This document shows positions 17,453 through 48,884 of a stretch of DNA of 64,000 nt, one piece after another. The stretch is from an uncultured Acidimicrobiaceae bacterium. GTDB lineage: Bacteria > Actinomycetota > Acidimicrobiia > Acidimicrobiales > RAAP-2. The notes under the pieces were generated by a model, which ran no database searches, was not told the origin of the DNA, and saw only the letters and a list, made by a program, of their open reading frames with translations. The position numbers were made by a program, and so were the translations under genes. Position 1 is the first letter of the stretch. The number at the start of each line of letters is the position of its first letter. The DNA is taken from assembly GCA_963783965.1 (NCBI GenBank), contig CAWAPQ010000013.1, positions 367,529 to 431,528 of the forward strand, read 5' to 3'.

Positions 17453-18822
17453 GGGGTGGGCCCTGTGGGCCCGCGCCCTTGTTGCCGGTTGCCTCGGGCT
17501 GATGCTCGGGGTCACGCTGCTGCCGGCGACCGCGGGCGCAGAGAGCACACCCGGCGTGACGTCGACGTCCATCACCATCGGTGCGACGGTCCCCCTGACC
17601 GGCCCTGCCGCGCCGGGCTACGACGAGATCGCCCCCGCCATGAACGCGCTGTTCAGCTGGGTCAACGCGCATGGTGGCGTCGACGGCCGCAAGATCCACT
17701 ACACGTACCTCGACGACGGCTACAACCCGGCCAACACCGCCACGCTGACCCGCAAGCTCGTGCTGCAGGACAACATCTTCGCCGACGTCGGGTCGCTCGG
17801 AACGCCGACTCAGTCGGCGGTGCAGGGCTTCCTGAACGCCCAGAAGGTGCCGCAGCTCTTCATCGAATCGGGCTGCAACTGCTGGAGTAACTCGAAGTTC
17901 CCCTACAGCCTCGGTTGGCAGCCCCCCTACACCGTGGACGGAAAGATCCTCGGGGCCTACATCAAGGCGAATTTCGCCGGAAAGAAGATCGGCTACCTGT
18001 CCCAGGACGACGAGTTCGGACAGGACGTCGTGAAGGGCCTCGACATGGAGATCCCCTCCTCAGACGTGGTCTCGCGACAGACCTACGACGCGGCGACGCT
18101 GGCCGGTCCGCTGTCCAACCAGATGGCGGCGCTGAAGGCGGCGGGTGCCCAGGTGGTCGTGCTGGCCACCATCCCGGCCGCCACGGCGCTGGCGATGCTC
18201 CCCGCCGCGGTCATCGGCTACGCCCCGCAGTACGTGGTGGACAACGTCGGTGCCGACGCGCCGACGGTGGGGCCGCTGCTCGCCTCGTTCACCCAGAAGG
18301 GCGGTGGAACGGCCGCCCAGGCGCAGGCGGCCGGAGGCCTGCTCAACGGGGTCATCACCGATGCGTACTTCGCCCCCGAGTCCGACACGTCCAACTCGTG
18401 GGTGCAGACGGAGAAGAAGATCCTGCAGCAGTACGCACCCTCGCTCTACGCCAAGTCGGGGCTGGACGGGAACACCCAGTACGGCATCGCGCTCGGCCTA
18501 TACCTTCGTCCAGGCGCTGCAGAAGGCCGGGAAGAATCTCACCCGCCAGAGCCTCCTCGATGCCATCAACAAGGACGGGAAGAGCTTCGTGACCCCGGGG
18601 TTCGTTCCGCTCTCGTACTCGAGCTCGGTGCACTTCGGGTTCGAGGGCGAAGAGGTCGTCAAGTTGGAGAGCTCGGCCCCTCCCGCCGTCACACCGACCG
18701 GCACGTGGATCGGCAGCGTCGCCGTCACTCCGGTTGAGCAGACGAGTCCCGGTGCCGGCCCGATCCACAAGTACACCGGTCCCACCTCGGTCCCGCCCAA
18801 GAATCTGGCCGCCACCGGCTGA
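17427..18822 (+). pseudogene. Liv-type periplasmic substrate-binding (lipo)protein gene interrupted by a +1 frame change near 18492..18496
   Basis: ATG 17427 with AGGAGGAG upstream, then a signal-like WALWARALVAGCLGLMLGVTLLPATAGA. Homology runs to ..GNTQYGIAL in frame 0, then continues as AYTFVQALQKAGKNLTRQSLLDAINKDGK.. in the +1 frame (ORF 18145..18822). The frame-0 continuation is Arg-rich nonsense. Confidence 0.8.
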
Positions 18823-19681: not shown

Positions 19682-20887
19682 TCAGGCGGCGAAGGGCAGC
19701 TTCATGACCTCCGCGAGATTGCCGCCCATGACCTTCGCCATCTCCTCGTGCGACAAGCCCTCGAGCTCGTCGACGTAGGACAGCGGCTCCGACATGCCTT
19801 CGATGTGCGGGTAGTCCGATCCGAACACGACGCGGTCGGCGCCCACCAGATCAATGAGGCCGCGCGGGTCCTCCTCGTGGAACGGGTGGATCCAGATGTT
19901 CCGCTTGAGCACCATGAGGGGATCCTCGTCGTAGATCGCCGGCTCGTGCGCGTACGAGCGGCCCATGGCGTCAATGAGCGGGCGCACCCACGCCGAGCCG
20001 TTCTCCACGGGGAGGATGCGCAACGTCGGGAACCGGCTCAGCAGGCCGTGCCCGATCAACGACGCCACGGTGTCGAAGATGCCCCGGCCCTGCGTGTGCG
20101 CGATGTCCATGAAGGCCGACTTGCCTCCCGCGAACGGAAGGTGCTCCCCGCCGTGGGTGCCTTCCCACTGGTTGTAGTAGCGGGTGAGGCCGTCGTCGGA
20201 GGCATGCATGCCAACCGTGACGTCCAGCTCGGTCACCCGCTGCCAGAACGGGTCGAACTCGGGGAGCGCGAACGAGCGGTAGCCCCGGTAGCCCGGCACC
20301 GGGGCGGGCCTGATGAGGATCAGCTTCGCCCCCCGCTCGACGACCCATTCGAGCTCCTTGATCGCCTCGTCGACGATGGGCAGCGTGATCACCGGCGACG
20401 CGAAGATCCGGCCCTCGTAGTTGAACGTCCAATGCTCGTGCATCCACTGGTTCAGCGCGTGGACCACGACGTGCGTGGCAATCGGGTCGTCGGCCAGGCG
20501 CTCCTCGAGCAAGCTGGCCAGTGTCGGCCACATGAGGGCACGGTCGAGGCCGAGCTCGTCCATGAGGGCGAGCCGCGGCTCGGGCGAGAAGAACGCCTCG
20601 GGCGAACGGATCGGGTCCCCCATCAGCTCGCGGCGGCTCTTTCCCTCGGGATTGCCGTACTTGAAGAGCTCCTCGGACGCACCCGGTCGGCCGACCACGT
20701 TGAAGGTCGGGTTCGGGATGTACTCGGAGATCACGTTGCGCACGGCGATTTTGGTGCGCCCGTTGACCTCCACGTACTTGATCAGCCCGGCGTACTCGGG
20801 AGGCAGGAACTTCGTGAAGGCGTCCGTCGTCTCGTACATGTGGTTGTCGGCGTCGAAGACGGGAAAGTCGACAATGGGCTTGGGCAT
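19682..20887 (-). CDS. Amidohydrolase_2 (ACMSD/metal-dependent hydrolase) family protein
   Basis: MPKPIVDFPVFDADNHMYE..VVFGSDYPHIEG. ATG 20887 is preceded by GGAGGTGG. Confidence 0.85.
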   Translation of the reverse strand: MPKPIVDFPVFDADNHMYETTDAFTKFLPPEYAGLIKYVEVNGRTKIAVRNVISEYIPNPTFNVVGRPGASEELFKYGNPEGKSRRELMGDPIRSPEAFFSPEPRLALMDELGLDRALMWPTLASLLEERLADDPIATHVVVHALNQWMHEHWTFNYEGRIFASPVITLPIVDEAIKELEWVVERGAKLILIRPAPVPGYRGYRSFALPEFDPFWQRVTELDVTVGMHASDDGLTRYYNQWEGTHGGEHLPFAGGKSAFMDIAHTQGRGIFDTVASLIGHGLLSRFPTLRILPVENGSAWVRPLIDAMGRSYAHEPAIYDEDPLMVLKRNIWIHPFHEEDPRGLIDLVGADRVVFGSDYPHIEGMSEPLSYVDELEGLSHEEMAKVMGGNLAEVMKLPFAA

Positions 20888-21052
20888 GACCACCTCCGGG
20901 AGGACGGAACCGCAGTGCGTGGCATCCACGTGGCGAGCGGCTCGTTTTCAACTTCGACGTCAATATTACAGGATGGAGCGGAGCGGACACAATCGTGACG
21001 GTGGCGACCCCCTCCCGCCGTGGAGGCGGTATCTGGCACGAGGAGAGGGACC

Positions 21053-21068
21053 ATGCAAAGCTTTGCAT
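21053..21068. promoter_or_regulatory. 16-bp perfect palindrome ATGCAAAGCTTTGCAT (LacI-type operator candidate) overlapping the uxaC start
   Basis: Read directly. The same 14-bp core TGCAAAGCTTTGCA recurs at 46357..46370. Confidence 0.5.
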
Positions 21069-22477
21069 CGATGCTCCACCCGGACCGCCTCCTGCCCGCC
21101 GACCCGGGAGTCCGCCGGATCGCCCGGGCCCTGTACGACGGGACGAAGCCCCTTCCCATCGTGAGTCCCCACGGCCACTGCGACCCTGTGGCACTGGCCG
21201 ACGACATCCCGTTCGACAGCCTCGCGACCGAGCTCGTGACGAAGGACCACTACATCCTGCGCATGCTGTACAGCCAAGGTGTGTCCCTCGAGGCACTCGG
21301 CGTACCCCGGCGCGACGGCACACCGGTCGTCACGGACGGAAGGCAGATTTGGCGCGAACTGGCAGCGCGTGCTCCGCTGTTCCGCGGCACGCCGTCGAAG
21401 CTGTGGCTCGACCACACGCTGCAGGAGGTGTTCGGCGTCCAGGAGCCGATCGACGCCAAGAACGCCGACGCCGTGTACGAGACGATCTCGGCCCGCCTGG
21501 CCGAAGAGAGCTTCCGACCACGTGCGCTCTTCGAACGCTTCGGCATCGCCTTCCTCGCCACGACCGACGGCGCCCTCGACCTTCTCGAACCGCATGTGCA
21601 GCTGCGTCAATCCGGTTGGGCGGGACGCGTCGTGCCGACCTTCCGCCCGGACGATGTCATCGACCCTGATCGGCCCGCCTTCCAGGCGCGCGTGGCAACG
21701 CTCGGCGAGCTGACAGGTGAGGACACCGCGACCTGGTCCGGCTACCTCGACGCGCTCCGGAGCCGGCGGGCCTCGTTCGTCGCGGCGGGCGCGACCGCTT
21801 CGGACCACGGGCACGCGTCCCCCGTCACGGCCGATCTTTCACCGACAGAAGCAGAAGCTCTGTTTACGCGCGTGATGGCGGGCAGGGGACAACCGGGCGA
21901 CGCCGATTTGTTCCGCGGTCAGATGCTGGTCGAAATGGCGGCGATGAGCCTGGACGATGGTCTCGTGCTGCAAATCCACGCCGGTGCGTGGCGCGACCAC
22001 AATCCGACGGTGGCGGCCCGCTTCGGCCCCGACCAGGGCGCCGACATTCCGAGGGGGGTCGACTACGTGGACGGCCTCAAACCGCTGCTCGACCGGTTCG
22101 GCAACGAGCAGGGGCTGACCGTCGTCGTCTACACCCTCGACGAGACGACCTACAGCCGCGAGCTGGCGCCGCTGGCCGGGCACTATCCGGCACTGCGCCT
22201 TGGGCCTCCGTGGTGGTTCTTCGACAGCCCCGAAGGCATCCGCCGCTTCTACCGCTCGATCGTCGAGACGGCCGGATTCGCCAACACCGTCGGCTTCAAC
22301 GACGACGCCCGGTCCCTGCTGAGCATCCCGGCCCGCCACGACGTGGCCCGGCGGCTCAATGCCGGCTACCTGGCCGAGCTGGTGGCGGAGCACCGAATGT
22401 CGGAGGAGGACGCCGCGGACACCGCGGAGGACTTGGCCCTCAACCTCGCCTGTCGGGCTTTCCGGGTCGATCGATGA
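21053..22477 (+). CDS. uxaC: Glucuronate isomerase (uronate isomerase)
   Basis: 474 aa. ..LPIVSPHGHCDP..KDHYILRML..LQIHAGA..LGPPWWFFD.. is collinear with UxaC. GGAGAGGGA lies upstream of ATG 21053; ATG 21071 is an alternative. Confidence 0.9.
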   Translation: MQSFASMLHPDRLLPADPGVRRIARALYDGTKPLPIVSPHGHCDPVALADDIPFDSLATELVTKDHYILRMLYSQGVSLEALGVPRRDGTPVVTDGRQIWRELAARAPLFRGTPSKLWLDHTLQEVFGVQEPIDAKNADAVYETISARLAEESFRPRALFERFGIAFLATTDGALDLLEPHVQLRQSGWAGRVVPTFRPDDVIDPDRPAFQARVATLGELTGEDTATWSGYLDALRSRRASFVAAGATASDHGHASPVTADLSPTEAEALFTRVMAGRGQPGDADLFRGQMLVEMAAMSLDDGLVLQIHAGAWRDHNPTVAARFGPDQGADIPRGVDYVDGLKPLLDRFGNEQGLTVVVYTLDETTYSRELAPLAGHYPALRLGPPWWFFDSPEGIRRFYRSIVETAGFANTVGFNDDARSLLSIPARHDVARRLNAGYLAELVAEHRMSEEDAADTAEDLALNLACRAFRVDR

Positions 22478-22992
22478 CGCGCGTGGTGCTCGTCGGACTG
22501 ATGGGGTCCGGCAAGTCCACCGTCGGCGCGCTGGTCGCCGAGCGGACCGGCAGGGCGTTCGTCGACGTCGACGTGGTCATCGCCCAGGAGACGGGCAAGA
22601 CCGTCCGCGCCCTCTGGGAGGAGGGCGGCGAAGCTGCCTACCGCCACCTCGAATCGGAGGCCGTGCTGCGAGTCCTGCGCGACGACACGCCCTCGGTACT
22701 GGCAGCCCCCGGGGGTGCCGTGCTCGATCCGCGCCTGCGCGCCGCCCTCACCGGGAACCTCGTCGTCTGGCTGCGGACCAGTCCGACGACACTGGCGGCT
22801 CGGGTCCGGCCCGGGGATCACCGACCCCTCCTCGGGGACCAGCCCGCTGAGACCCTGGCCGCCATGGCGGCGGCGCGGTCGAACCTCTACGAAGAGGTGG
22901 CGACCGCCACCATCGACACTGACGGCCGCACCGCGGCGGAGATCGCGGAGGACGTCATCGGACTGCTCGCAGGCAGCCCGGCGGACACCTGA
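22474..22992 (+). CDS. Shikimate-kinase-family (SKI) P-loop kinase, translationally coupled to uxaC
   Basis: MTRVVLVGLMGSGKSTVGALVAERTGRAFVDVDVVIAQETGKTVRALWEEGGEAAYRHLE.. closely resembles AroK. The usual GGG substrate loop reads APGG. ATG 22474 overlaps the uxaC stop (ATGA). Confidence 0.8.
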   Translation: MTRVVLVGLMGSGKSTVGALVAERTGRAFVDVDVVIAQETGKTVRALWEEGGEAAYRHLESEAVLRVLRDDTPSVLAAPGGAVLDPRLRAALTGNLVVWLRTSPTTLAARVRPGDHRPLLGDQPAETLAAMAAARSNLYEEVATATIDTDGRTAAEIAEDVIGLLAGSPADT

Positions 22993-23011
22993 CCGACGAA
23001 ACGGGGACCAC

Positions 23012-24829
23012 ATGCTTCGACCACAGGACGGCAGCACCCGCGAGACCAAGCGGCTCGACGGGATCTGGTCCTTCAGCCCGGACAGTGCCGGGGTCGGTCG
23101 CTCCGAGGGTTGGTTCCGCGCCGCCCTCCCCGAAGGTCGTCGGATGCCGGTGCCGAGCAGCTTCAACGACGTGCTGGCCGATCCGCAGGTGCACGACCAT
23201 GTCGGTGACGTCTGGTACCAGCGCAACGCCTTCATCCCGCGCGGCTGGGCCGGACAGCGCATCGTCCTCCGATTCGATGCCGCCACGCACCGCGCCACCG
23301 CGTGGGTCGGGGACTCCTGCGTCGGCGACCACGAGGGCGGCTACACGCCGTTCGAGATTGACGTCACCGCTTTCGTAGTGCCGGGCGAGGAGTGCCGGTT
23401 CACCGTGGTCGTCAACAACGAGCTCACGTGGGAGTCCATTCCTCCGGGAGTCGTGGAGGTGCTGCCGGACGGGACCCGACGGCAACGGCAGTACCACGAC
23501 TTCTTCAACTACGCCGGCCTGCACCGCAGCGTCTGGCTCTACGCGACCCCCCGCGCGCACGTCGATGACGTGACTGTGGTCACCGACCTCGACGACGGGG
23601 TCGGTGTCGTCCGCTACGACGTCGGCGTCGCAGGAGGCGGCTCCCAGGCCGTCCGTGTGCGGCTCCGCGACGCCGGCGGCGTCGTGGTCGCCGAGGCGGA
23701 AGGGGCTGACGGTGTCCTCCGTGTGGCCGAGCCGGAGCTGTGGGGGCCGGGGCGGGGATACCTCTACGACCTGGAGGTCGAGCTCGTCGTCGTCGACGAC
23801 GACGATGACGCCGTCGTCGACCGCTACACGCTCCCGGTCGGCATCCGCACCGTGCGGGTCGAGGGCACGCAGTTCCTCATCAACGACGAGCCCTTCTACT
23901 TCCGGGGCTTCGGCAAGCACGAGGACCTCAACGTGCACGGCCGCGGCCACGACGACGCGGCGATGCTGCACGACTTCTCGCTCCTCGCGTGGATCGGCGC
24001 CAACTCCTTTCGGACCTCCCACTACCCCTACGCCGAGGAGGTGCTCGAACAGGCCGACCGCCAAGGCATCGTCGTCATCGACGAGACGGCTGCGGTCGGG
24101 CTCAACCTTGGCGTCGGAGGAGGAATGTTCCTCGGTGGCCCGAGGACGACCTTCTCGGAAGAGACGGTCAGCGCAGCCACGCAGCTGGTGCACCGTCGGG
24201 CCATTGAGGAGCTCATCGCACGGGACAAGAACCATCCGTGCGTCGTCTTGTGGAGCCTGGCCAACGAGCCCGAGTCCCACACCGCCGCCGGCCGCACCTA
24301 CTTCGAGCCTCTGTTCCGGGCGGCCCGGGAGGCTGATCCGAGCCGTCCGGTCGGATTCGTCAACATGATGTTCGCGCTCCCCGGCACCTGCACGGTGACC
24401 GAACTGGCGGATGTCGTGATGATCAACCGCTACTACGGCTGGTACGTCGAGCCCGGCGACCTCCTGGCGGCGGAGCGAGGTCTCGAGGCAGAGCTCCGGG
24501 CCTGGGCCGCCACGCACGCCAAGCCCATCATTGTGACGGAGTACGGAGCGGACACGATGTCGGGACTCCACACGACGGACGGCAGCATCTGGAGCGAGGA
24601 GTACCAGGTGGCACTGCTCGAGACCTATCACCGCGTCTTCGATCGCACGGAGGCAGTGGTGGGCGAGCACGTCTGGAACTTCGCGGACTTCGCCACGGGG
24701 CCGTCCTTCATGCGTGTCGACGGCAACAAGAAGGGCGTGTTCACCCGGGATCGGCGGCCGAAAATGGCCGCACATTACCTGCGGCGCCGGTGGACCGGCG
24801 CTCCCTGGCGCGTGTCGTCGAATGCCTGA
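23012..24829 (+). CDS. uidA: Beta-glucuronidase (GH2)
   Basis: MLRPQDGSTRETKRLDGIWSF.. is collinear with E. coli GUS (MLRPVETPTREIKKLDGLWAF..). WSLANEPE (acid/base), VTEYGAD (nucleophile), NKKGVFTRDRRPK. Confidence 0.95.
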   Translation: MLRPQDGSTRETKRLDGIWSFSPDSAGVGRSEGWFRAALPEGRRMPVPSSFNDVLADPQVHDHVGDVWYQRNAFIPRGWAGQRIVLRFDAATHRATAWVGDSCVGDHEGGYTPFEIDVTAFVVPGEECRFTVVVNNELTWESIPPGVVEVLPDGTRRQRQYHDFFNYAGLHRSVWLYATPRAHVDDVTVVTDLDDGVGVVRYDVGVAGGGSQAVRVRLRDAGGVVVAEAEGADGVLRVAEPELWGPGRGYLYDLEVELVVVDDDDDAVVDRYTLPVGIRTVRVEGTQFLINDEPFYFRGFGKHEDLNVHGRGHDDAAMLHDFSLLAWIGANSFRTSHYPYAEEVLEQADRQGIVVIDETAAVGLNLGVGGGMFLGGPRTTFSEETVSAATQLVHRRAIEELIARDKNHPCVVLWSLANEPESHTAAGRTYFEPLFRAAREADPSRPVGFVNMMFALPGTCTVTELADVVMINRYYGWYVEPGDLLAAERGLEAELRAWAATHAKPIIVTEYGADTMSGLHTTDGSIWSEEYQVALLETYHRVFDRTEAVVGEHVWNFADFATGPSFMRVDGNKKGVFTRDRRPKMAAHYLRRRWTGAPWRVSSNA

Positions 24830-25772
24830 CGACCAGCTCCCCGTAGAGCTCCCTCCTCGCGGGTGCTTCGCCGAGCATCGCCATGGCCGCGGCACCGACC
24901 TCCCCGGAGGGCAGGCGGATGGTCGTGAGCGGAGGGGCGACCATGGCTGCCATCGGCACGTCGTCGAAACCCACCACGCTGACGTCACGGGGGACGGAGA
25001 TCCCGAGAGCGGTCAACCCGGCGATGACCCCGAGCGCCATCTGATCGTTGAACGCCAGCACCGCCGAGACGCCGCTGGCAGCGATGTCGGGCACCACGCT
25101 CGCCGTGGCCTCGAACGTCGGCTCGCCCACCGAGAGCTCGACCACCGCGATCCCACTGGACCGACCGTTCCGCCGCACCGCGGTGCGGCGCTCGCCGGCC
25201 GCCCACGACCCATTGGGCCCACCGAGATACGCCAACCGTGTGTGACCGAGCCCGGCCAGATGTATGAGGGTGTCGCTGACCGCGGGTGCGGTGCGGAGGA
25301 GAACGGAGGCATGCTCGCGCACGGGGCGGTTGACGAAGACCGCCGGCGTCGACCCCAGGGAGCCGAGGGTGCGATGCAGGCGGCGCGGCGACACGATGAT
25401 GAACCCGTCGACCTCCCGGGACAGGGACTCCGCCGCTCGCACCTCCTCACCCGGGTGCTCGCCGGTGTCTACGAGGAGCACCTGCAGCTCGGCCTGCCGC
25501 GCCGCGCGCTCGACGGATCGGACCACCGCAGCGAAGTGCGGATTGGTGATGTCGGGAACGATGACGGCGAGATTGCCCGTCCGGCCGGTGATCAAGCCAC
25601 GGGCCGCCCGGTTCGGAACGAAGCCGAGCGCGCGTACAGCTTCTTCGACCTTGCGGCGGGTTTCGGGAGCGACCTTCTCGGGCACGTTGATGGTGCGAGA
25701 CACCGTGGCCGCATGCACGCCGGCGCGGGCGGCGACATCGAGGATCGTCGCTCGTTGCTCGCGCCGCACCAC
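24741..25772 (-). CDS. LacI-family transcriptional regulator
   Basis: ATILDVAARAGVHAATVSRTINVPEKVAPETRRKVEEAVRALGFVPNRAARGL HTH, then a periplasmic-binding-like core ending ..LVVRHST. GTG 25772 or 25769. The 3' end overlaps uidA convergently. Confidence 0.9.
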   Translation of the reverse strand: MVRREQRATILDVAARAGVHAATVSRTINVPEKVAPETRRKVEEAVRALGFVPNRAARGLITGRTGNLAVIVPDITNPHFAAVVRSVERAARQAELQVLLVDTGEHPGEEVRAAESLSREVDGFIIVSPRRLHRTLGSLGSTPAVFVNRPVREHASVLLRTAPAVSDTLIHLAGLGHTRLAYLGGPNGSWAAGERRTAVRRNGRSSGIAVVELSVGEPTFEATASVVPDIAASGVSAVLAFNDQMALGVIAGLTALGISVPRDVSVVGFDDVPMAAMVAPPLTTIRLPSGEVGAAAMAMLGEAPARRELYGELVVRHSTTRARERRSTGAAGNVRPFSAADPG

Positions 25773-25813
25773 GCCCGACCCTACACGGCGACCTACGGGA
25801 CCCCAGGGGAAGG

Positions 25814-27199
25814 ATGACCGGCACGCGCCAGCAACGCCTGAGCGCGCGCACGGTGCTGCACGCGCGTGCGGGCACGCTGCCGGACTACGACAGGGCCGGG
25901 CCACCCGTCATCGCCCACCTCGGTTTCGGCGCCTTCGCCAGGGCCCACCTGGCGGTCTACGCTGACGCACTCCTCCGGCGCGGTCATCCCGCGCTGATCA
26001 GCGGTGTCTCCCTCAGGAGCCGGCGGGCGCAGCAGCAACTCGAGCCGCAGGACGGTCTCTTCACCGTCGCCGTGCGGGAGCCGGGTGAGGAGACGACACT
26101 CCAGGTGATCGGTGCACTGACCTCCATGACGACCGGGCCCGCGGCGGCGCTCGAGGCGATGACGTCACCGACCACATCGCTCGTCACGGTGACCATCACT
26201 GAGAAGGGCTACGAAGACAGCGTCGACAGGCCGACGACCTCAGGAGGAGCGCCCGGCACGGCGGCGCTCATCGCCCAGGCGTTGGCCCAGCGCCGCCGGG
26301 AGGGAGCGGCGCCTCCGGTCTTCGCATCGCTCGACAACCTTCTGGACAACGGCGGCGTGCTGCGGGCGCGGGTCCTCCGGGCAGCCGAGGCCATCGATCC
26401 CGCCCTGGCGGCGTGGATCGCCGACGAGGTGTGCTTCCCCAGCTCGGTCGTCGACCGCATGGTTCCTGCGCCCACCGAAGCCAGTCGGAAGGACATCGCC
26501 GACGAGCTCGGGCTCGTCGACGAGGCTGCCGTCGCCACGGAACGCCACCGTTCCTGGATCATGCGGTCGGTCGGCGGGTTGGATCGCCTCGGCGAGGTCG
26601 GCGTGGAGCTGGTCGACGACATTGATCCCTTCGAGCGCCGCAAGCTCTGGCTCCTCAACGAACCGCACTCCGCCGCGGCGTACGGCGGCCTGCTGACCGG
26701 GTGCGCCACCATCGCAGCGGCCGTGGCAGATCCCGTCGTCGCTCGCTTCGTACGGGCGCTCGTCGAACAGACGCTCGAGGTGGCCGCGCTGCCGCCAGCG
26801 CTGCAGCCCGCGGCATTCGCCGACGACGCGTTGCGGAGATTCGCCAACCCGGCTCTGGGCCACACCTGCGTCCAGGTCGGCGCCGACGGATCGAGCAAAT
26901 TGCCCCAGCGCCTGCTCCCCGTCGTGGCGGCCCGACGGGCCAGGTCGCTCGACACCACAACGTTCGCCATCGTGGCGGCCATCTGGATCGCCGGCGTGGC
27001 GGGCGTGGAGGTGCGTGGCGTGGCGCTTCCCCGCCTGCAGGATCCGATCGCCGAGGATCTCCGTGCCGCCGCCCGGTGCGGCGCGCTCGGGGAGCTCAGT
27101 CGCCGCGCCCTCGGGCACACCGCGTTCGCCGCCGAGGTCGCGTCCATGCTGCAGCGGTTGACCACAGAGGGACCGAGGGTGTTGGGGGGTGGGGAGTGA
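25814..27199 (+). CDS. Mannitol-dehydrogenase-family oxidoreductase (fructuronate/tagaturonate-reductase-like)
   Basis: IAHLGFGAFARAHLAVY, TITEKGY, VDRMVP, LNEPHSAAAY motifs of the long-chain mannitol DH family. Start may be somewhat downstream. Confidence 0.85.
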   Translation: MTGTRQQRLSARTVLHARAGTLPDYDRAGPPVIAHLGFGAFARAHLAVYADALLRRGHPALISGVSLRSRRAQQQLEPQDGLFTVAVREPGEETTLQVIGALTSMTTGPAAALEAMTSPTTSLVTVTITEKGYEDSVDRPTTSGGAPGTAALIAQALAQRRREGAAPPVFASLDNLLDNGGVLRARVLRAAEAIDPALAAWIADEVCFPSSVVDRMVPAPTEASRKDIADELGLVDEAAVATERHRSWIMRSVGGLDRLGEVGVELVDDIDPFERRKLWLLNEPHSAAAYGGLLTGCATIAAAVADPVVARFVRALVEQTLEVAALPPALQPAAFADDALRRFANPALGHTCVQVGADGSSKLPQRLLPVVAARRARSLDTTTFAIVAAIWIAGVAGVEVRGVALPRLQDPIAEDLRAAARCGALGELSRRALGHTAFAAEVASMLQRLTTEGPRVLGGGE

Positions 27200-28449
27200 C
27201 GGTGACGCTGGGGGGGCCCGGACGGGTGCTCGAACCCGAGGCGGTTCGCTCGTTCGTGCGCGCCGAGGTCGCCGCACTGGACCTGGCCGGTCGCTCCCTG
27301 TGCGTGGTCATCCCCGACGCCACCCGGAACTGCCCGCTGCCCCTGCTCCTCCGGGCCATCGAAGAGGGAGCCGGCGGACGGACGAGTGCACTGACCGCGG
27401 TGATCGCCCTCGGCACCCACGCACCCATGTCCGACGACGCCGTGGCCGCGTTGGTCGGGCCGGCCTCCCTTCACGTCCGCAACCATGCGTGGTGGGAGGA
27501 CGACACCTTCACGCACGTCGGCTCGTTGTCGGCGGAGCTGGTCGTGGAGCTCTCGGGCGGCCGGCTTCATGACCCGATCGACGTCCGGCTCAACCGGCTC
27601 GTTGTCGAGAGCGACGTGACGCTGCTCGTCGGCCCGGTGTTGCCCCATGAGGTCATCGGCTTCTCGGGAGGGAACAAGTACCTGTTCCCCGGGCTGTCCG
27701 GCCAGGAGATGATCGACGTGACGCACTGGCTCGGGGCGCTGATCACGAGCAGCGAGATCATCGGCACGCGTGGGGTCACGCCCGTGCGGGCACTGGTCGA
27801 GGCGGCGGCCGAGCTGGTGCCCGGCGAGCGCCACGCCCTGTGCGTCGTCGTGGACCACGACAGTGGCGGCCTGGAGTCGTTGTCCTTCGGGGACCCGTTC
27901 GGCGCCTGGGCGGCCGCGGCCGAGGTGGCGGCGGAGACGCACGTCATCTATCTCGACCGCCCGGTGCGGAGGGTGCTCTCCCTCGTCCCCACGCGGTACC
28001 CGGACCTGTGGACGGGGGCCAAGGGCTTCTACAAGGTGGAGCCGGTGGTGGCCGACGCGGGCGAGGTCGTCCTGTACGCGCCGCACATCACCGAGATCGC
28101 GGCGATGCACCCGCGCCTCATGGAGATCGGCTACCACTGCCGCGACTTCTTCCTGGCCCAGTGGGACCGCTACCGCGACGTCCCGCTGGGCGAGCTGGCG
28201 CACTCGACCCATCTGTTCGGCGCCGGGACGTACGACCCCGTGGGCGGGGAGCGCCAACGGGTCCGGGTCACCCTGGCCACCGGCATCCCCGAGGACGTCG
28301 TGCGGCGGGCGAACCTCGGCTACCTCGCGCCCGACGCCGTCGAGCCCTCAGCATGGGCTTCCGATCCCCATGCGCTGGTCGTGCCCGATGCCGGCGAGGT
28401 GCTCTACCGGCTCCGGACAACCCCACCGGCGGGCTACTCGCCGGGATAG
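27196..28449 (+). CDS. LarA-like (lactate-racemase family, DUF2088) putative nickel-pincer-dependent 2-hydroxyacid racemase/epimerase
   Basis: 417 aa. VVIPDATRNCPLP, IALGTHAP, PHEVIGFSGGNKYLFPG and IDVTHW align with the LarA catalytic/cofactor motifs. GTG 27196 overlaps the upstream stop (GTGA). Confidence 0.8.
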   Translation: MTVTLGGPGRVLEPEAVRSFVRAEVAALDLAGRSLCVVIPDATRNCPLPLLLRAIEEGAGGRTSALTAVIALGTHAPMSDDAVAALVGPASLHVRNHAWWEDDTFTHVGSLSAELVVELSGGRLHDPIDVRLNRLVVESDVTLLVGPVLPHEVIGFSGGNKYLFPGLSGQEMIDVTHWLGALITSSEIIGTRGVTPVRALVEAAAELVPGERHALCVVVDHDSGGLESLSFGDPFGAWAAAAEVAAETHVIYLDRPVRRVLSLVPTRYPDLWTGAKGFYKVEPVVADAGEVVLYAPHITEIAAMHPRLMEIGYHCRDFFLAQWDRYRDVPLGELAHSTHLFGAGTYDPVGGERQRVRVTLATGIPEDVVRRANLGYLAPDAVEPSAWASDPHALVVPDAGEVLYRLRTTPPAGYSPG

Positions 28450-29405
28450 ACGACGCCGAGCTCGGCCCGGATGGCATCGAGGGTCGTGGCCAGGGCGATG
28501 GACTCGTCCAAGGGGACCACACTGCTCTCGGTCCGGCCTTCGGCGAGGCAGCGATGCACCTCGTCGATCTCGAAACGGAGCCCGTTGCCTTCGTACGAGG
28601 CGTCGATCCGCTCGACTCCGGCCGCGCTCGAGACGGTGAGGGCGTTCGGACAGTGCATCATTGCCGGGAGATCGATGACGCCATCGGTCCCCGCGATCCG
28701 GGCGGTGCAGGGCATGGCGACCCGCAAGGCGGCCTTGACCACACCCAACCGGTCCTCCGTGTGGTGCAGGAGCGCGGTGACCACCTCGTCGACACCCGTC
28801 TCGCCCACCACCCCGTCGGCGACGACGCGCTCGATCGGCCCCAGGACCAGCGTGCAGAGCTGCACGGGGTAGATCCCGAGGTCGAGCAGCGCCCCTCCGC
28901 CCAGCTCACGAGCGAAGTGCCGGTGATCGGGATCCACCGGCCGGCGGAACCCGAAGTCCGCCTCCACGAGGAGGGGCTCACCGATGCGACCCTCGCCGAG
29001 AACATCGACGAGTGCGCGGTAGGCGGGAAGGAACCTGCTCCAGATGGCCTCCATGAGGAAGAGTCCCCGGCTGCGGGCCTCCTCCGCCATGCGTGCCCCC
29101 TGGCGGGCGTTGAGTGCGAACGGCTTCTCGCACAGGACGTGCTTCCCGGCCTGCAGGAGGGTGATGGTGTCGACCTCGTGACGCGAGTGCGGGGTCGCGA
29201 CGTAGACGACATCCACGTCGGGGTCGCCGGCGAGCGCGTCGTAGTCGCCGTACCGGGTCGGGATGTCGAACCTGTCGCCGAACGCGTCGGCCCGCTCGGC
29301 CGAGCGCGAGGCCACGGCCGTGATGGTGCCCCCCTCGGCCCACTGCATCGCCTCGGCGAAGCCCGCGGCGATGATGCCCGGCCCGATCACGCCCCAGCGG
29401 ATCAC
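28434..29405 (-). CDS. Gfo/Idh/MocA-family NAD(P)-dependent oxidoreductase (dimeric dihydrodiol / sugar 1-dehydrogenase-like)
   Basis: VIRWGVIGPGIIAAGFAEAM..HVLCEKPFALN.. from GTG 29405. The rest of the 866-aa track ORF is spurious. Overlaps the LarA-like 3' end by 16 nt (convergent). Confidence 0.85.
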   Translation of the reverse strand: MIRWGVIGPGIIAAGFAEAMQWAEGGTITAVASRSAERADAFGDRFDIPTRYGDYDALAGDPDVDVVYVATPHSRHEVDTITLLQAGKHVLCEKPFALNARQGARMAEEARSRGLFLMEAIWSRFLPAYRALVDVLGEGRIGEPLLVEADFGFRRPVDPDHRHFARELGGGALLDLGIYPVQLCTLVLGPIERVVADGVVGETGVDEVVTALLHHTEDRLGVVKAALRVAMPCTARIAGTDGVIDLPAMMHCPNALTVSSAAGVERIDASYEGNGLRFEIDEVHRCLAEGRTESSVVPLDESIALATTLDAIRAELGVVYPGE

Positions 29406-29477
29406 CGCGGGACCCCTTCGCCGACGGCCATCCGGCCTCGCATCGGGCCCGTTCCGGAGGCAGGAGACTTCACTGTC

Positions 29478-29491
29478 TGATAACGCTATCA
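29478..29491. promoter_or_regulatory. LacI-type operator candidate TGATAACGCTATCA in the oxidoreductase/xylA divergent region
   Basis: Near-palindrome (6 of 7 arm pairs) with a CG centre. 12/14 identical to TGTTATCGCTATCA at 40120..40133. Confidence 0.5.
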
Positions 29492-29570
29492 TCGGCCACT
29501 GCCTGGGACAACGCGGCGGTGACGGTGGCGGCTCGACGGGGTGCCGGGTGGAAGCCACGACAGGAGGACC

Positions 29571-30728
29571 ATGACCGATCTCTTTGTGCCGCGACCCGAA
29601 GACCACTTCACTTTCGGGCTCTGGACCGTGGGCAACCCCGGCCGTGACCCGTTCGGCGCCGAGGTGCGCGCGCCACTCGACCCGGTCGATTCCGTGCACC
29701 GTCTCGCCGAGCTGGGCGCCTACGGCGTCAGCTTCCACGACAACGATCTCGTCCCGTACGGCTCGTCGCCCAACGAGCGTGACGAGATACTGAAGCGCTT
29801 TCGCCGCGCGCTCGACGCCACCGGGATGCACGTTCCCATGGTGACGACGAACCTCTTCTGGCGGCCGGTGTTCAAAGAGGGCGCGTTCACGGCCAACGAC
29901 CCGCTCGTGCGCCGACTGGCCGTCAAGAAAGCCTGTGAAGCGACCGAGCTCGGTGCCGAGCTCGGTGCCGAGATCTTCGTCCTCTGGGGTGGCCGGGAGG
30001 GAATGGAGGCCGAAGCCGCCAAGGACGTCCGGCTGGCCCTGGACCGCTACAAGGAAGCGATCGATCTCGTGTGCGATCACATTGCGGCGCGGGGCCTTCG
30101 CCTGCGTCTTGCGCTGGAGCCCAAGCCGAACGAGCCCCGCGGCGACATCCTCCTCCCGACCGTGGGCCATGCGCTCGCCTTCATCGGGTCGCTCGAGCAT
30201 CCGGACATGGTCGGGCTGAACCCGGAGTTCGCGCACGAGACCATGAGCGGCCTCTCCTTCTCGCAGGCCGTGGCGCAGGCGTTGTGGCAGGGCAAGCTCT
30301 TCCACATCGATCTCAACGCGCAGCGGATCGGCAAGTTCGACCAGGACTTCCGCTTCGGTTCCGAGGGGATCCGCGATGCCTTCTACGTCGTCAAGCTGCT
30401 GGAGGACGCCCGGTGGGACGGCATGCGGCACTTCGACGCCCACCCGTACCGCACCGAGGATGCCGACGGCGTATGGGACTTCGCCCGCGGCTGCATGCGC
30501 ACGTACCTGATATTGGCGGACAAGGCCCGGCGCTTCCACGAAGACGCCGACATCCGGGAGGCCCTCCGGGTGGCAAAGGTGGCCCAGCTGGGTGAACCGA
30601 CGGCCCCGGCCGGCGGCCTCGACGAGCTGCTGGCCGCGCAGTACGACGAGGACGCGCTGGCCGCGCAGGGCTACGGCCACGAACAGCTGGACCAGCTCGT
30701 CACCGAGTTGCTGCTCGGGGCCCGGTAG
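29571..30728 (+). CDS. xylA: Xylose isomerase (class I, actinobacterial type)
   Basis: [52 protein letters not shown] lies upstream of ATG 29571. Confidence 0.95.
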
Positions 30729-46306: not shown

Positions 46307-46356
46307 GGGCGCACGCTAGACGTTCATCCGCTCGCCGGACGGGGGCTCCGGTTTGA

Positions 46357-46370
46357 TGCAAAGCTTTGCA
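46357..46370. promoter_or_regulatory. 14-bp perfect palindrome TGCAAAGCTTTGCA in the MarR/GH1 divergent region (LacI-type operator candidate)
   Basis: Identical core to 21054..21067. Lies 64 nt upstream of the GH1 ATG. Confidence 0.5.
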
Positions 46371-46433
46371 GAGGCCAGGGCGGGCGTGTCACACTGCGGC
46401 CTTCCGGTCAGGCTTGCGACAGGAAGGACCGCG

Positions 46434-47669
46434 ATGGCACGGTTTCCACATGGCTTTCTCTGGGGCGCGGCCACAGCCGGACACCAGGTCGAAGGCGGCA
46501 ACGTCAACGCCGACATGTGGCCGATGGAATGGGCCCAGAACTCGACCTTCAACGAGCCGTCCGGCGACACGTGCGATCACTACCACCGCTATCCCGAGGA
46601 CATCGCGGCCCTCGCCGAGCTCGGACTCACCGCGTACCGCTTCTCCCTCGAGTGGTCCCGGATCGAACCCGAGCCGGGCTTCTATTCGCGGGCCGCGCTC
46701 GACCACTACGGGAGGATGATCGAGAGCTGCCTGCACAACGGCATCACGCCGGTGGTGACCTACAACCACTTCACGGTCCCGCGCTGGATGGCAGGCCGGG
46801 GCGGATGGAGTGCAGATGATGCACCGGCGCGCTTCGCGGACTATGCGGCGCGAGCGACGCAGCACTTCGGCGATCTCCTGTCGTGGGCCTGCACGCTGAA
46901 CGAGCCCAACCTCATGGCCATGATGCGGAGCACCGGCGTCCTGGCCATGGGCGCCGGAGACCGCTCACCGCGCCCCGAGCCTTTCGAATCGGAACGCGGT
47001 GGTGTCGGCGGCTTCGACCCGCGGCACTACCGGATGGGGATTGTGGCGGCCGACCTCGAGCGCATGGCGACGGCCCATCGACAGGCGGTGCAGGCGATCA
47101 AGGCGACGACGGGGGCCATCAAGACGGGGTGGACCCTGGCGCTCGTGGACTTCCAGCCGGCGGAGGGTGGCGAGGAACGGTGGCAGGAGGCACGGCGGGT
47201 GGCCCAGACCGACTGGCTCGCCGTCTCGGCCGACGACGACTTCGTCGGCGTGCAGACGTACTCCCGCGCCCGCATCGGACCGGAGGGGCAGCTGTCCGTG
47301 CCGGACGGGGCCGACACCATGCAGACCGGCTGGGAGGTCTACCCCGAGGCACTGGGACACACGGTCCGCCTCGCCGCGGAACACGCCGGCGTGCCCGTGC
47401 TCGTGACCGAGAACGGGATGGCGACCGACGACGACGCGAGCCGGCTGGCCTACATCCGTGCCGCGCTCGAGGGACTGGCCCGGGCCGTTGCTGACGGGGT
47501 CGACGTGCGCGGCTACCTGCACTGGACGCTGCTCGACAACTTCGAATGGAACGCCGGCTACTCCAAGACGTTCGGCCTCATCGCCGTCGACCGCGAGACC
47601 TTTGCCCGTTCGGTCAAACCCTCCGCCCGCTGGCTCGGTCAGGTGGCCCAGCGCAACGGCCTGGACTGA
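46434..47669 (+). CDS. GH1 beta-glucosidase
   Basis: MARFPHGFLWGAATAGHQVEG..YRFSLEWSRIEP..TLNEPN (acid/base)..LVTENGMAT (nucleophile). AGGAAGGA lies upstream of ATG 46434. Confidence 0.9.
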   Translation: MARFPHGFLWGAATAGHQVEGGNVNADMWPMEWAQNSTFNEPSGDTCDHYHRYPEDIAALAELGLTAYRFSLEWSRIEPEPGFYSRAALDHYGRMIESCLHNGITPVVTYNHFTVPRWMAGRGGWSADDAPARFADYAARATQHFGDLLSWACTLNEPNLMAMMRSTGVLAMGAGDRSPRPEPFESERGGVGGFDPRHYRMGIVAADLERMATAHRQAVQAIKATTGAIKTGWTLALVDFQPAEGGEERWQEARRVAQTDWLAVSADDDFVGVQTYSRARIGPEGQLSVPDGADTMQTGWEVYPEALGHTVRLAAEHAGVPVLVTENGMATDDDASRLAYIRAALEGLARAVADGVDVRGYLHWTLLDNFEWNAGYSKTFGLIAVDRETFARSVKPSARWLGQVAQRNGLD

Positions 47670-47696: not shown

Positions 47697-48884
47697 TCAG
47701 CGTCGGCCGGGCCCGGCAGACCCGTCGACCTCGAACCCGACGCGCTCGATGTCGGGCGCCAACTGCGCCATGTCGAACCCGTACAGGCGCGCCGCGTTCT
47801 CGCACAGGATCTTGCGTGCCACGTCGGCACTGATACTCGGATGCTGCACCAATGCGTCGACCTGGGCGTTGGTCTCGGGGAACACCGATTCGAAGTGCGG
47901 ATAGTCCACCCCGAACATCGCGTTGTCACACCCGATGGCGAACGGCTGGTACTCGGCACTGGGACGGGCCAGCTCCTGGAGCGGAACCTGGTCGTCGGTG
48001 AAGGGCGAGATACCGGCGAAGCAATTGGCCGCCCAGTAGTCACGCGCCGAGCCCGTGAACTGGCGCATGCGCTGCAGCGTGTGAGCCCACCCCGTCCAAT
48101 CGTCCCCCCACTCGAGCCGACGGTCCAGCTTGCGGATCACCGGAGCGATCCAATCCGCCTCGGTCTCTATGAACGCGAGCCGCAGGTCGGGAAAGCGCGC
48201 GAAGACGCCGCCGAGGATCATCTGCCACAGGGAGCGGCCCGAGTAGAAGGAGTGCTCGAGCGCGAGGGTCATGATGGCGGCGAACCCGGGCGGCCCGTAG
48301 GCGGGCGCACCCGACCCCCCGTGCTGACTGATCGGCAGGCCCACGTCCACGCAGGCGGCCCACACCGGGTCGAGCGCAGGGTCGAAGAAGAAGGTCCCAC
48401 CGGGCAACAGGGCGGGCATCATGACGCCGCCCAGGCCGTGCTCCTTGGCCCAGTGGATGTCCGCCACCGCCAGGTCGACGTCGTCGAACGAGACCAGCGC
48501 CTGCCCGGCGCGACGGCCCGGCGTGTGGGCGCAGAAGTCGGCCAGCCAGCGGTTGTAGGCGAGACGCGCCTGCCGGTCGATCTCGGGGTCGGCGAACGAG
48601 CCCACGTCGTCGGCGGGCCTGGACTGGAACGGAAGCCCGTTCGGGAAGAGCACCTCGGCCACCACGCCCTGACTCTCCATGTCCTTGAGGCGCAGGTCCG
48701 AGTCCCACTGCGACGTGGGATCGAGTCCGGCGCTCAGGTTGCCGCTCTCGGGTGCACCCGCCGCTTCCTCCGCGCTCGCCCACGCATCGAAGGCAGGGAG
48801 GAAACGCTGCTCGACGTAGTTCCGGTAGTCGCTCCGTGAAGCCCGGACGTGTCCGTCCACCGAGATGATCGCGGTCTTCGCCAT
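47697..48884 (-). CDS. Amidohydrolase_2 family protein
   Basis: MAKTAIISVDGHV..AMFGVDYPHFES. Shares VFARFPDLR with the partial copy at 63476. Confidence 0.85.
   Translation of the reverse strand: MAKTAIISVDGHVRASRSDYRNYVEQRFLPAFDAWASAEEAAGAPESGNLSAGLDPTSQWDSDLRLKDMESQGVVAEVLFPNGLPFQSRPADDVGSFADPEIDRQARLAYNRWLADFCAHTPGRRAGQALVSFDDVDLAVADIHWAKEHGLGGVMMPALLPGGTFFFDPALDPVWAACVDVGLPISQHGGSGAPAYGPPGFAAIMTLALEHSFYSGRSLWQMILGGVFARFPDLRLAFIETEADWIAPVIRKLDRRLEWGDDWTGWAHTLQRMRQFTGSARDYWAANCFAGISPFTDDQVPLQELARPSAEYQPFAIGCDNAMFGVDYPHFESVFPETNAQVDALVQHPSISADVARKILCENAARLYGFDMAQLAPDIERVGFEVDGSAGPGRR

Follow-up and report, generated by a model that had tools for sequence, protein, structure and literature searches.

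A putative GntE-type glucuronate shunt with a shikimate-kinase paralogue in a glucuronide cluster of uncultured soil Acidimicrobiaceae

The Ashwell (isomerase) pathway of Escherichia coli proceeds through UidA, UxaC, UxuB, UxuA, KdgK, and Eda. For Thermotoga maritima, a shunt composed of UxaC, UxaE, UxuB, GntE, and GntK was proposed by Rodionova et al. 2012 (as reported in PMC6978723 and PMC7583248), and gntE is located there between the genes of fructuronate reductase and gluconate kinase (PMC6978723, PMC7583248). In the galacturonate pathway of Lactobacillus suebicus, a mannonate kinase acts first and is followed by a 6-phosphomannonate 2-epimerase; the genes of both are unidentified, and GntK homologues are candidates (Valk et al. 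2020, PMC6978723). Here we describe a gene cluster in a stretch of 64,000 nucleotides (the window, 64 kb) on contig CAWAPQ010000013.1 of an uncultured Acidimicrobiaceae bacterium (assembly GCA_963783965.1), which consists of uxaC, a gene for an SKI-family kinase, uidA, a convergent lacI, a gene for a UxuB-like reductase, and a larA homologue (Table 1). Genes were called from the frame plot of G+C content at third codon positions (GC3; the window has about 70% G+C) and checked by scans with hidden Markov models (HMMs), and both analyses agreed with the gene list and coordinates of the initial annotation.

The cluster is best read as a system for LacI-controlled catabolism of beta-glucuronides and glucuronate via the GntE shunt, with the kinase acting on gluconate, a reading to which we give somewhat better than even chances. 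UidA would hydrolyze imported glucuronides, and UxaC would convert glucuronate to fructuronate, both proteins scoring above the cut-offs of their equivalog models; the alignment of UidA to its model begins at residue 1, and the protein carries three Pfam domains of glycoside hydrolase family 2 (GH2). Judging from family membership and context, the UxuB-like reductase would produce D-mannonate from fructuronate. The LarA homologue, which is predicted to depend on the nickel-pincer nucleotide (NPN), would then convert D-mannonate to D-gluconate at C2, as suggested by its homology, active-site and signature residues, and context. The gene context further suggests that gluconate is phosphorylated to 6-phosphogluconate by the shikimate-kinase paralogue of the cluster in most lineages, and in kinase-less lineages the gluconokinase step would be covered by a kinase encoded elsewhere. 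The product would enter the pentose-phosphate or Entner-Doudoroff (ED) pathway, so that the shunt would stand in for the dehydratase/2-keto-3-deoxygluconate (KDG) branch. The initial annotation knew of no description of this route from glucuronide to 6-phosphogluconate; the route itself is the most likely one, but it had already been proposed for T. maritima in the work reported by the papers cited above. The pathway logic is thus already published, and the hypothesis is a rediscovery. The new elements are the kinase derived from shikimate kinase, the link to uidA under the probable LacI operator, and the host clade.

The predicted pathway resembles that of T. maritima in its succession of an isomerase, a fructuronate reductase, an NPN-dependent C2 epimerase of the LarA family, and a kinase leading to 6-phosphogluconate. 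Reductase and epimerase genes adjoin and overlap here, as has been reported for uxuB and gntE of T. maritima, and the catalytic, NPN-binding, and E-V-A-H signature residues of the epimerases are shared. However, the two epimerases are 32% identical, and the kinase found here, a shikimate-kinase paralogue, belongs to another family than the one in T. maritima, which is presumably of the FGGY type and is called merely gluconate kinase in the papers. The cluster described here also contains a beta-glucuronidase and a LacI repressor and has no UxaE. T. maritima is a hyperthermophile with a UxuA-KdgK-KdgA branch as well, whereas the host here belongs to the aerobic soil Acidimicrobiaceae. With the L. 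suebicus pathway the cluster would share the bypass of the dehydratase/KDG branch, the end point 6-phosphogluconate, and the use of one kinase and one C2 epimerase after mannonate, but the kinase and epimerase steps would take place in reversed order. The first three steps and enzymes of the E. coli Ashwell pathway would be shared too, while UxuA and Eda are missing from the window and the related loci, KdgK is missing from the window, no UidB/UidC-type transporter is present, and the regulator is of the LacI type instead of UidR/UxuR/ExuR.

A search with the LarA homologue, restricted to one genome per species, yielded 53 loci, mostly in metagenome-assembled genomes (MAGs) of Acidimicrobiaceae from Danish soils, and ten window genes were run by tblastn against them. 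The recurrent order was amidohydrolase(-), uxaC, kinase, uidA, lacI(-), reductase, LarA homologue, GFO/IDH/MocA oxidoreductase(-), and xylAB, with identical order and strands in about 45 loci assigned to Acidimicrobiaceae or Acidimicrobiales. When the kinase was used as the query instead of the epimerase, the cluster was found in 11 of 11 places, and it was seen again in a further search. Because order and strands are conserved in about 45 loci and the cluster recurs in all of the kinase-selected places, the arrangement is not a chance juxtaposition, and the conservation that the initial annotation had proposed to check was borne out.

The variants of the cluster indicate which of its genes can be lost. 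In seven loci, uxaC is followed directly by uidA without the kinase; they belong to two lineages (the L004 group with L005, L024, L031, and L032; L020 with L053), both of which have kept the epimerase. The 2.9 kb of extra DNA upstream in the kinase-less loci of the L004 group is an unrelated insertion with genes for a TetR regulator, an SDR, and a P450, and it holds no other kinase or transporter. Four other loci (L007, L012, L013, and L035) have the order uxaC-kinase-reductase-epimerase. Remnants of the 5' ends of both uidA and lacI are left in the spacer (L007:8422-8622 and L012:8536-8640; likewise in L013 and L035), so these are deletion derivatives that have lost uidA and lacI and kept exactly the four metabolic genes. 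Furthermore, uidA is broken into three open reading frames (ORFs) in L067-L069, which are three independent assemblies. The glucuronidase appears to be dispensable, and the glucuronate core does not. In Iamiaceae, reductase and uxaC genes are divergent from the LarA homologue. An ORF of 735-746 aa overlaps the stop codon of the LarA homologue in Iamiaceae MAGs (L028:11206-13443, L027:4783-7014, L030:6934-9174, L033:11218-13425); it is apparently co-translated with the epimerase and gave no match to Pfam, NCBIfam, or PDB sequences.

The closest solved structure to the LarA homologue is 4NAR (E 1e-53, residues 72-407; 32% identity over 355 aa), which is GntE2/LarAH20 of T. maritima (Desguin et al. 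2020, PMC7583248); homology to LarA/GntE extends across both domains. NPN-loaded GntE2 interconverts D-mannonate and D-gluconate in vitro (PMC7583248), and GntE activity has been shown in two studies (PMC7583248, PMC11770544). According to the later one, GntEs usually have E, V, A, and H at the positions of F175, F176, W358, and T359 in LarA1 (PMC11770544, 2024). The LarA homologue of the window possesses the NPN-binding residues R44, K161, and H177 (LarA R75, K184, and H200) and the catalytic residues D41, H75, H151, and K276 (LarA D72, H108, H174, and K298). D41 and R44 belong to the DxTR motif, K161 is the cofactor-tethering lysine, and W272 is present too. H151 directly precedes E152-V153, which is the 'EV' loop seen in groups 18-20, and the GntE signature is completed by A335 and H336. 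The 40 close homologues and 10 of the 11 distant ones have the cofactor, catalytic, and signature residues unchanged, and the E-V-A-H signature is kept across 51 aligned family members, one of which has I for V.

The genomic neighbours in other phyla also bear on the substrate. In a Deinococcota MAG (L049), uxaC, the LarA homologue, and a small ORF are followed by a gluconokinase gene (TIGR01313, 152.7 bits, cut-off 113.75). In two Chloroflexota-type MAGs (L047, Anaerolineales; L051, Anaerolineae), the neighbour encodes an FGGY kinase with FGGY gluconokinase as its best model, and in an Atribacterota MAG (L042) a 6-phosphogluconate dehydrogenase gene overlaps the start of the LarA homologue. 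Given the homology to 4NAR, the catalytic and NPN-binding residues, the E-V-A-H signature, and these gluconokinase and 6-phosphogluconate dehydrogenase neighbours, the LarA homologue is quite probably a GntE-type D-mannonate/D-gluconate 2-epimerase, and the mannonate/gluconate 2-epimerase role put forward in the initial annotation is well supported by sequence and context. Assignment to LarAH group 18, a putative hexonate epimerase (NCBIfam NF052594), was rejected, as the protein scored 143 bits against a cut-off of 500 and is nearer to GntE2 (group 20). The epimerase homologue of the Anaerolineae locus L051 (9908-11179), which lies beside an FGGY gluconokinase-like gene, has N, Q, and A at the equivalents of R44, H75, and K161 and may be an NPN-independent or inactive relative.

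The best PDB match of the kinase is the shikimate kinase of Mycobacterium tuberculosis (MtSK, E 2e-26). In an exhaustive search of representative sequences, its relatives formed a smooth gradient of 40-62% identity, AroK-AroB fusions included. The best non-cluster relative is P0246, whose family has Acidimicrobiales, Ilumatobacteraceae, and Rhabdothermincola among its source names. All five places that were looked up have this family in the aro operon (aroE-aroC-aroK-aroB-aroQ-pepP-efp-nusB), which identifies it as the housekeeping AroK of Acidimicrobiales. The cluster kinase shares 50-52% identity with it. Comparison of 117 cluster kinases with 120 housekeeping ones revealed 17 positions that are fixed differently, seven of them in the shikimate-binding subdomain or the GGG motif: T/S33 to V, R43 to K, I48 to L, F49 to W, D52 to G, F57 to Y, and G/A79 to P (MtSK numbering). 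The first of these yields DVD in the cluster kinases, versus DS/TD in the housekeeping ones.

Like AroK, the cluster kinase has the shikimate kinase (SK) fold, Walker A, DxD, RPLL, and the equivalents of R58/E61, G80/G81, and R136. Unlike AroK, it is encoded not in the aro operon but in a sugar-acid operon, without an aroC-aroK-aroB association, and its substrate-binding subdomain has fixed DVD, W48, Y56, and P79, which sets it apart from the housekeeping family. No AroB or AroC was found in the window or the related loci. The housekeeping shikimate kinases of Acidimicrobiales themselves have AAAGG instead of the textbook GGG motif, plus DSD (L070-L074), and in L071 aroB and aroQ are separated by an inserted Amidohydrolase_2 gene.

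The kinase was present in 25 of the 32 informative Acidimicrobiaceae loci, and its family occurred only inside this cluster (36 of 36 places). Its start overlaps the stop codon of uxaC (ATGA), and it is kept in the four-gene derivatives without uidA and lacI. This translational coupling, exclusive occurrence, and retention show that the operon has a dedicated kinase paralogue of its own. The SKI family and the place in the cluster given by the initial annotation stand. The kinase is not a gluconokinase of the GntK/IdnK type, as TIGR01313 gave only 19 bits (P-loop only) against the cut-off of 113.75. Neofunctionalized duplicates of shikimate kinase have been described, such as plant SKL1/SKL2 (PMC2593004) and an SK-like homoserine kinase (NCBIfam NF040667), and no shikimate-kinase-like gluconate or mannonate kinase in uronate clusters was found in the literature searched. 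We tentatively propose, at slightly less than even odds, that the kinase is a shikimate kinase duplicate recruited for D-gluconate or D-mannonate as a non-orthologous replacement of GntK, and that the GntE shunt is the sole glucuronate route in these abundant soil Acidimicrobiaceae, which would have no UxuA-KdgK-Eda branch.

Several observations weigh against the proposed route, and the first group of them concerns the kinase. BLASTP of the kinase against E. coli GntK aligned only 31 residues around the P-loop. On NF010552 (cut-off 186) the kinase reached 119 bits and authentic MtSK 120, and the NCBIfam cut-offs were consequently dropped as a test for a true AroK. In addition, D33, R57, E60, G80, G81, and the arginines of HRPLL and AARSNLY in the kinase align with the residues that we take to be the shikimate-contacting ones of MtSK, namely D34, R58, E61, G80, G81, R117, and R136. 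The 'AGG/PGG' and 'W/Y' features also occur in some relatives, AroK-AroB fusions among them, so that the kinase sequence is no proof of a substrate change. The AAPGG motif (G79 to P) is likewise weakened as a marker of changed specificity, and its contrast with the Acidimicrobiales housekeeping family is all that remains. Since the sequence is as shikimate-kinase-like as that of authentic MtSK, the gluconate-kinase role is drawn solely from gene context.

The conserved shikimate-binding polar residues, the HMM scores equal to those of authentic MtSK, the distinguishing motifs in relatives fused to dehydroquinate synthase, and the seven related clusters that do without the kinase would all fit a kinase standing outside the pathway, either as a second genuine shikimate kinase or as a kinase for another metabolite, in which case the cluster would end at gluconate and a gluconokinase would be encoded elsewhere. 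We consider this unlikely, given the overlap with the uxaC stop codon, the confinement of the family to the cluster, and the fact that even the minimal four-gene deletion derivatives have kept the kinase. Moreover, Acidimicrobiales have a separate aroK in the aro operon, and a biosynthetic kinase under a sugar-acid repressor would make little physiological sense.

A second point against the proposed route is the high Km of GntE2 for mannonate, 17 mM (PMC7583248), which leaves some doubt about the true substrate of the GntE enzyme class. Poor affinity for free mannonate would be in keeping with a pathway in which phosphorylation comes first, the shikimate-kinase paralogue making 6-phospho-D-mannonate and the LarA homologue converting it, as a 6-phosphomannonate 2-epimerase, to 6-phosphogluconate. 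This order was shown biochemically in cell extracts of L. suebicus (PMC6978723), and as the kinase is not of the gluconokinase type, any hydroxy-acid substrate is possible. However, the nearest characterized homologues of the epimerase (GntE2, GntE1, and LarAH15) take unphosphorylated mannonate or gluconate, and the Deinococcota orthologue adjoins a gluconokinase that passes TIGR01313. The seven epimerase-bearing clusters without the kinase also speak against it, as a rare mannonate kinase would be harder to substitute than a common gluconokinase. Phosphorylation before epimerization is accordingly improbable in our view. From the same loss pattern we infer that gluconate is favoured over mannonate as the kinase substrate, because two lineages lost the kinase yet kept the epimerase, and a common housekeeping gluconokinase could cover the step.

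The remaining points against the GntE shunt concern the reductase, transport, and cofactor supply. Among NCBIfam models, the reductase matched fructuronate reductase best (213 bits), with lower scores for D-arabinitol dehydrogenase (169) and tagaturonate reductase (108), and E. coli UxuB aligns with it over 410 aa at 37% identity; however, the score of 213 bits on the fructuronate reductase (UxuB) model PRK15037 lies below the cut-off of 603. Pfam scans, which took in about 50 of the about 56 ORFs of the window, revealed no GPH-type glucuronide transporter, and none is linked to the cluster. Neither were the NPN biosynthesis genes larB, larC, and larE found within the window by these scans. 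No transporter is conserved beside the cluster, and the ABC system upstream of it in the window is missing from the related loci.

The same Pfam scans detected no mannonate/altronate dehydratase, PfkB KDG kinase, 2-keto-3-deoxy-6-phosphogluconate (KDPG) aldolase, or Edd, and in tblastn searches the E. coli proteins UxuA, KdgK, Eda, Edd, and AroB had no match in the window. The absence of uxuA/uxaA, KDG kinase, KDPG aldolase, and a glucuronide transporter, noted in the initial annotation, therefore holds for the 64 kb. In the 53 related loci, tblastn with UxuA, Eda, and Edd gave no match, and KdgK gave weak KdgK-like matches in two Treponemataceae loci only. The visible DNA is 64 kb of a 1.43-Mb contig, and a canonical UxuA-KdgK-Eda set elsewhere might carry the flux, the LarA homologue being an accessory enzyme that acts mainly in reverse or on another aldonate or uronate-derived 2-hydroxy acid (for example, an altronate or idonate epimer). 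T. maritima possesses both branches (PMC6978723), GntE1 of Corynebacterium glutamicum is suspected of having a different native substrate (PMC7583248), and the reductase score below the UxuB cut-off would also agree with such a role. Nevertheless, none of the about 50 clusters has a dehydratase, aldolase, or KDG kinase linked to it, the signature residues match those of GntEs and not those of other LarA groups, and the gene neighbourhoods seen in other phyla suggest gluconate and 6-phosphogluconate, which makes a canonical route elsewhere very unlikely.

Regulation of the cluster was approached through a 16-bp perfect palindrome over the start codon of uxaC, for which another possible start lies at 21071. 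Only two matches to the palindrome were found in the window at ≤3 mismatches, where 0.06 is expected by chance. Its 14-bp core TGCAAAGCTTTGCA is identical at the 5' end of uxaC in 41 related loci and differs at one position in L048, while UxaC identity across the loci sharing it is just 65-90%; the core is also kept in loci with lacI deleted. From its sequence, the palindrome is probably a LacI-family operator and likely a repressor site. The GH1 gene with the second copy is possibly in the same regulon, and TGCAAAGCTTTGCA was also observed at a few other sites (L017:21040, L045:20890, and L020:17294). This recurrence, at a distance of 25 kb upstream of the GH1 gene and elsewhere, suggests that the LacI-type regulon is wider than the cluster. 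No palindrome that could be a second operator was found in the 41-bp spacer between lacI and the reductase gene, where the only conserved motif is CGACCCTAC, beside the lacI start. A promoter/terminator scan of 20700-29700 gave nothing above shuffled expectation. The regulator itself reached no specific equivalog in the NCBIfam scan.

Table 1. Coordinates of the cluster genes, the flanking amidohydrolase gene, and the two palindrome copies in the 64-kb window
Feature	Position	Strand	Remarks
Amidohydrolase_2 protein, divergent from uxaC	19682-20929	-	Pfam PF04909; best PDB match 4DZI, function unknown
16-bp perfect palindrome ATGCAAAGCTTTGCAT over uxaC start codon	21053-21068		Candidate LacI-family operator
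uxaC, glucuronate isomerase (glucuronate to fructuronate, predicted)	21053-22477	+	Pfam UxaC 233 bits; NCBIfam NF002794 equivalog 507 bits, cut-off 387
SKI-family kinase, shikimate-kinase paralogue, 172 aa	22474-22992	+	Pfam SKI 133 bits
uidA, cytoplasmic GH2 beta-glucuronidase	23012-24829	+	NCBIfam NF007538 equivalog 877 bits, cut-off 544
LacI-family regulator	24741-25772	-	Pfam LacI HTH and Peripla_BP_3
UxuB-like reductase, long-chain mannitol-dehydrogenase family	25814-27199	+	Pfam Mannitol_dh and Mannitol_dh_C
LarA homologue, putatively GntE-type	27196-28449	+	Pfam Lar_N 77 bits
Second palindrome copy ATGCAAAGCTTTGCAG	46356-46371		Upstream of GH1 glycosidase gene 46515-47669

The LarA homologue is translationally coupled to the reductase, whose stop codon its start overlaps (GTGA), and the convergent uidA and lacI overlap at their 3' ends by 89 nt (24741-24829); an overlap of about 80 nt is present in related loci too, for example at 7537-7616 in L001. 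The Amidohydrolase_2 protein gene is always divergent from uxaC and occupies the same position in related loci with 88-96% identity, which makes it more conserved than the pathway genes. A paralogue (47697-48884, minus strand) adjoins the GH1 gene that bears the second palindrome. Conceivably the Amidohydrolase_2 protein has a part in the regulon, for instance as a lactonase or a decarboxylase.

The window as a whole is a glycoside and sugar utilization island, which contains genes for GH43, two GH2, GH1, and GH78 enzymes, xylA/xylB, galT/galK, two HAAT-type ABC systems, and a second LacI regulator. In the gene of a HAAT-type ABC substrate-binding protein (17502-18737), the coding frame shifts near 18350-18450, and the Pfam match ends at residue 317 of 411, which points either to a pseudogene with a frameshift or to an error in the long-read assembly. 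Broken genes were observed in several related MAG loci as well, such as L015, L011, and L038.

Although no new pathway logic is revealed, the annotations 'shikimate kinase' and 'lactate racemase' would misname two genes in thousands of metagenomic copies. If the kinase substrate turned out to be mannonate, kinase and epimerase would supply the gene types for the mannonate kinase/6-phosphomannonate 2-epimerase pathway. The cluster is a clear-cut example, open to testing, in which a shikimate kinase duplicate may have been drawn into sugar-acid catabolism, and the proposed reading would extend the hexuronate GntE shunt beyond Thermotoga to soil Acidimicrobiaceae, which are widespread and uncultured, and tie it to the use of glucuronides.

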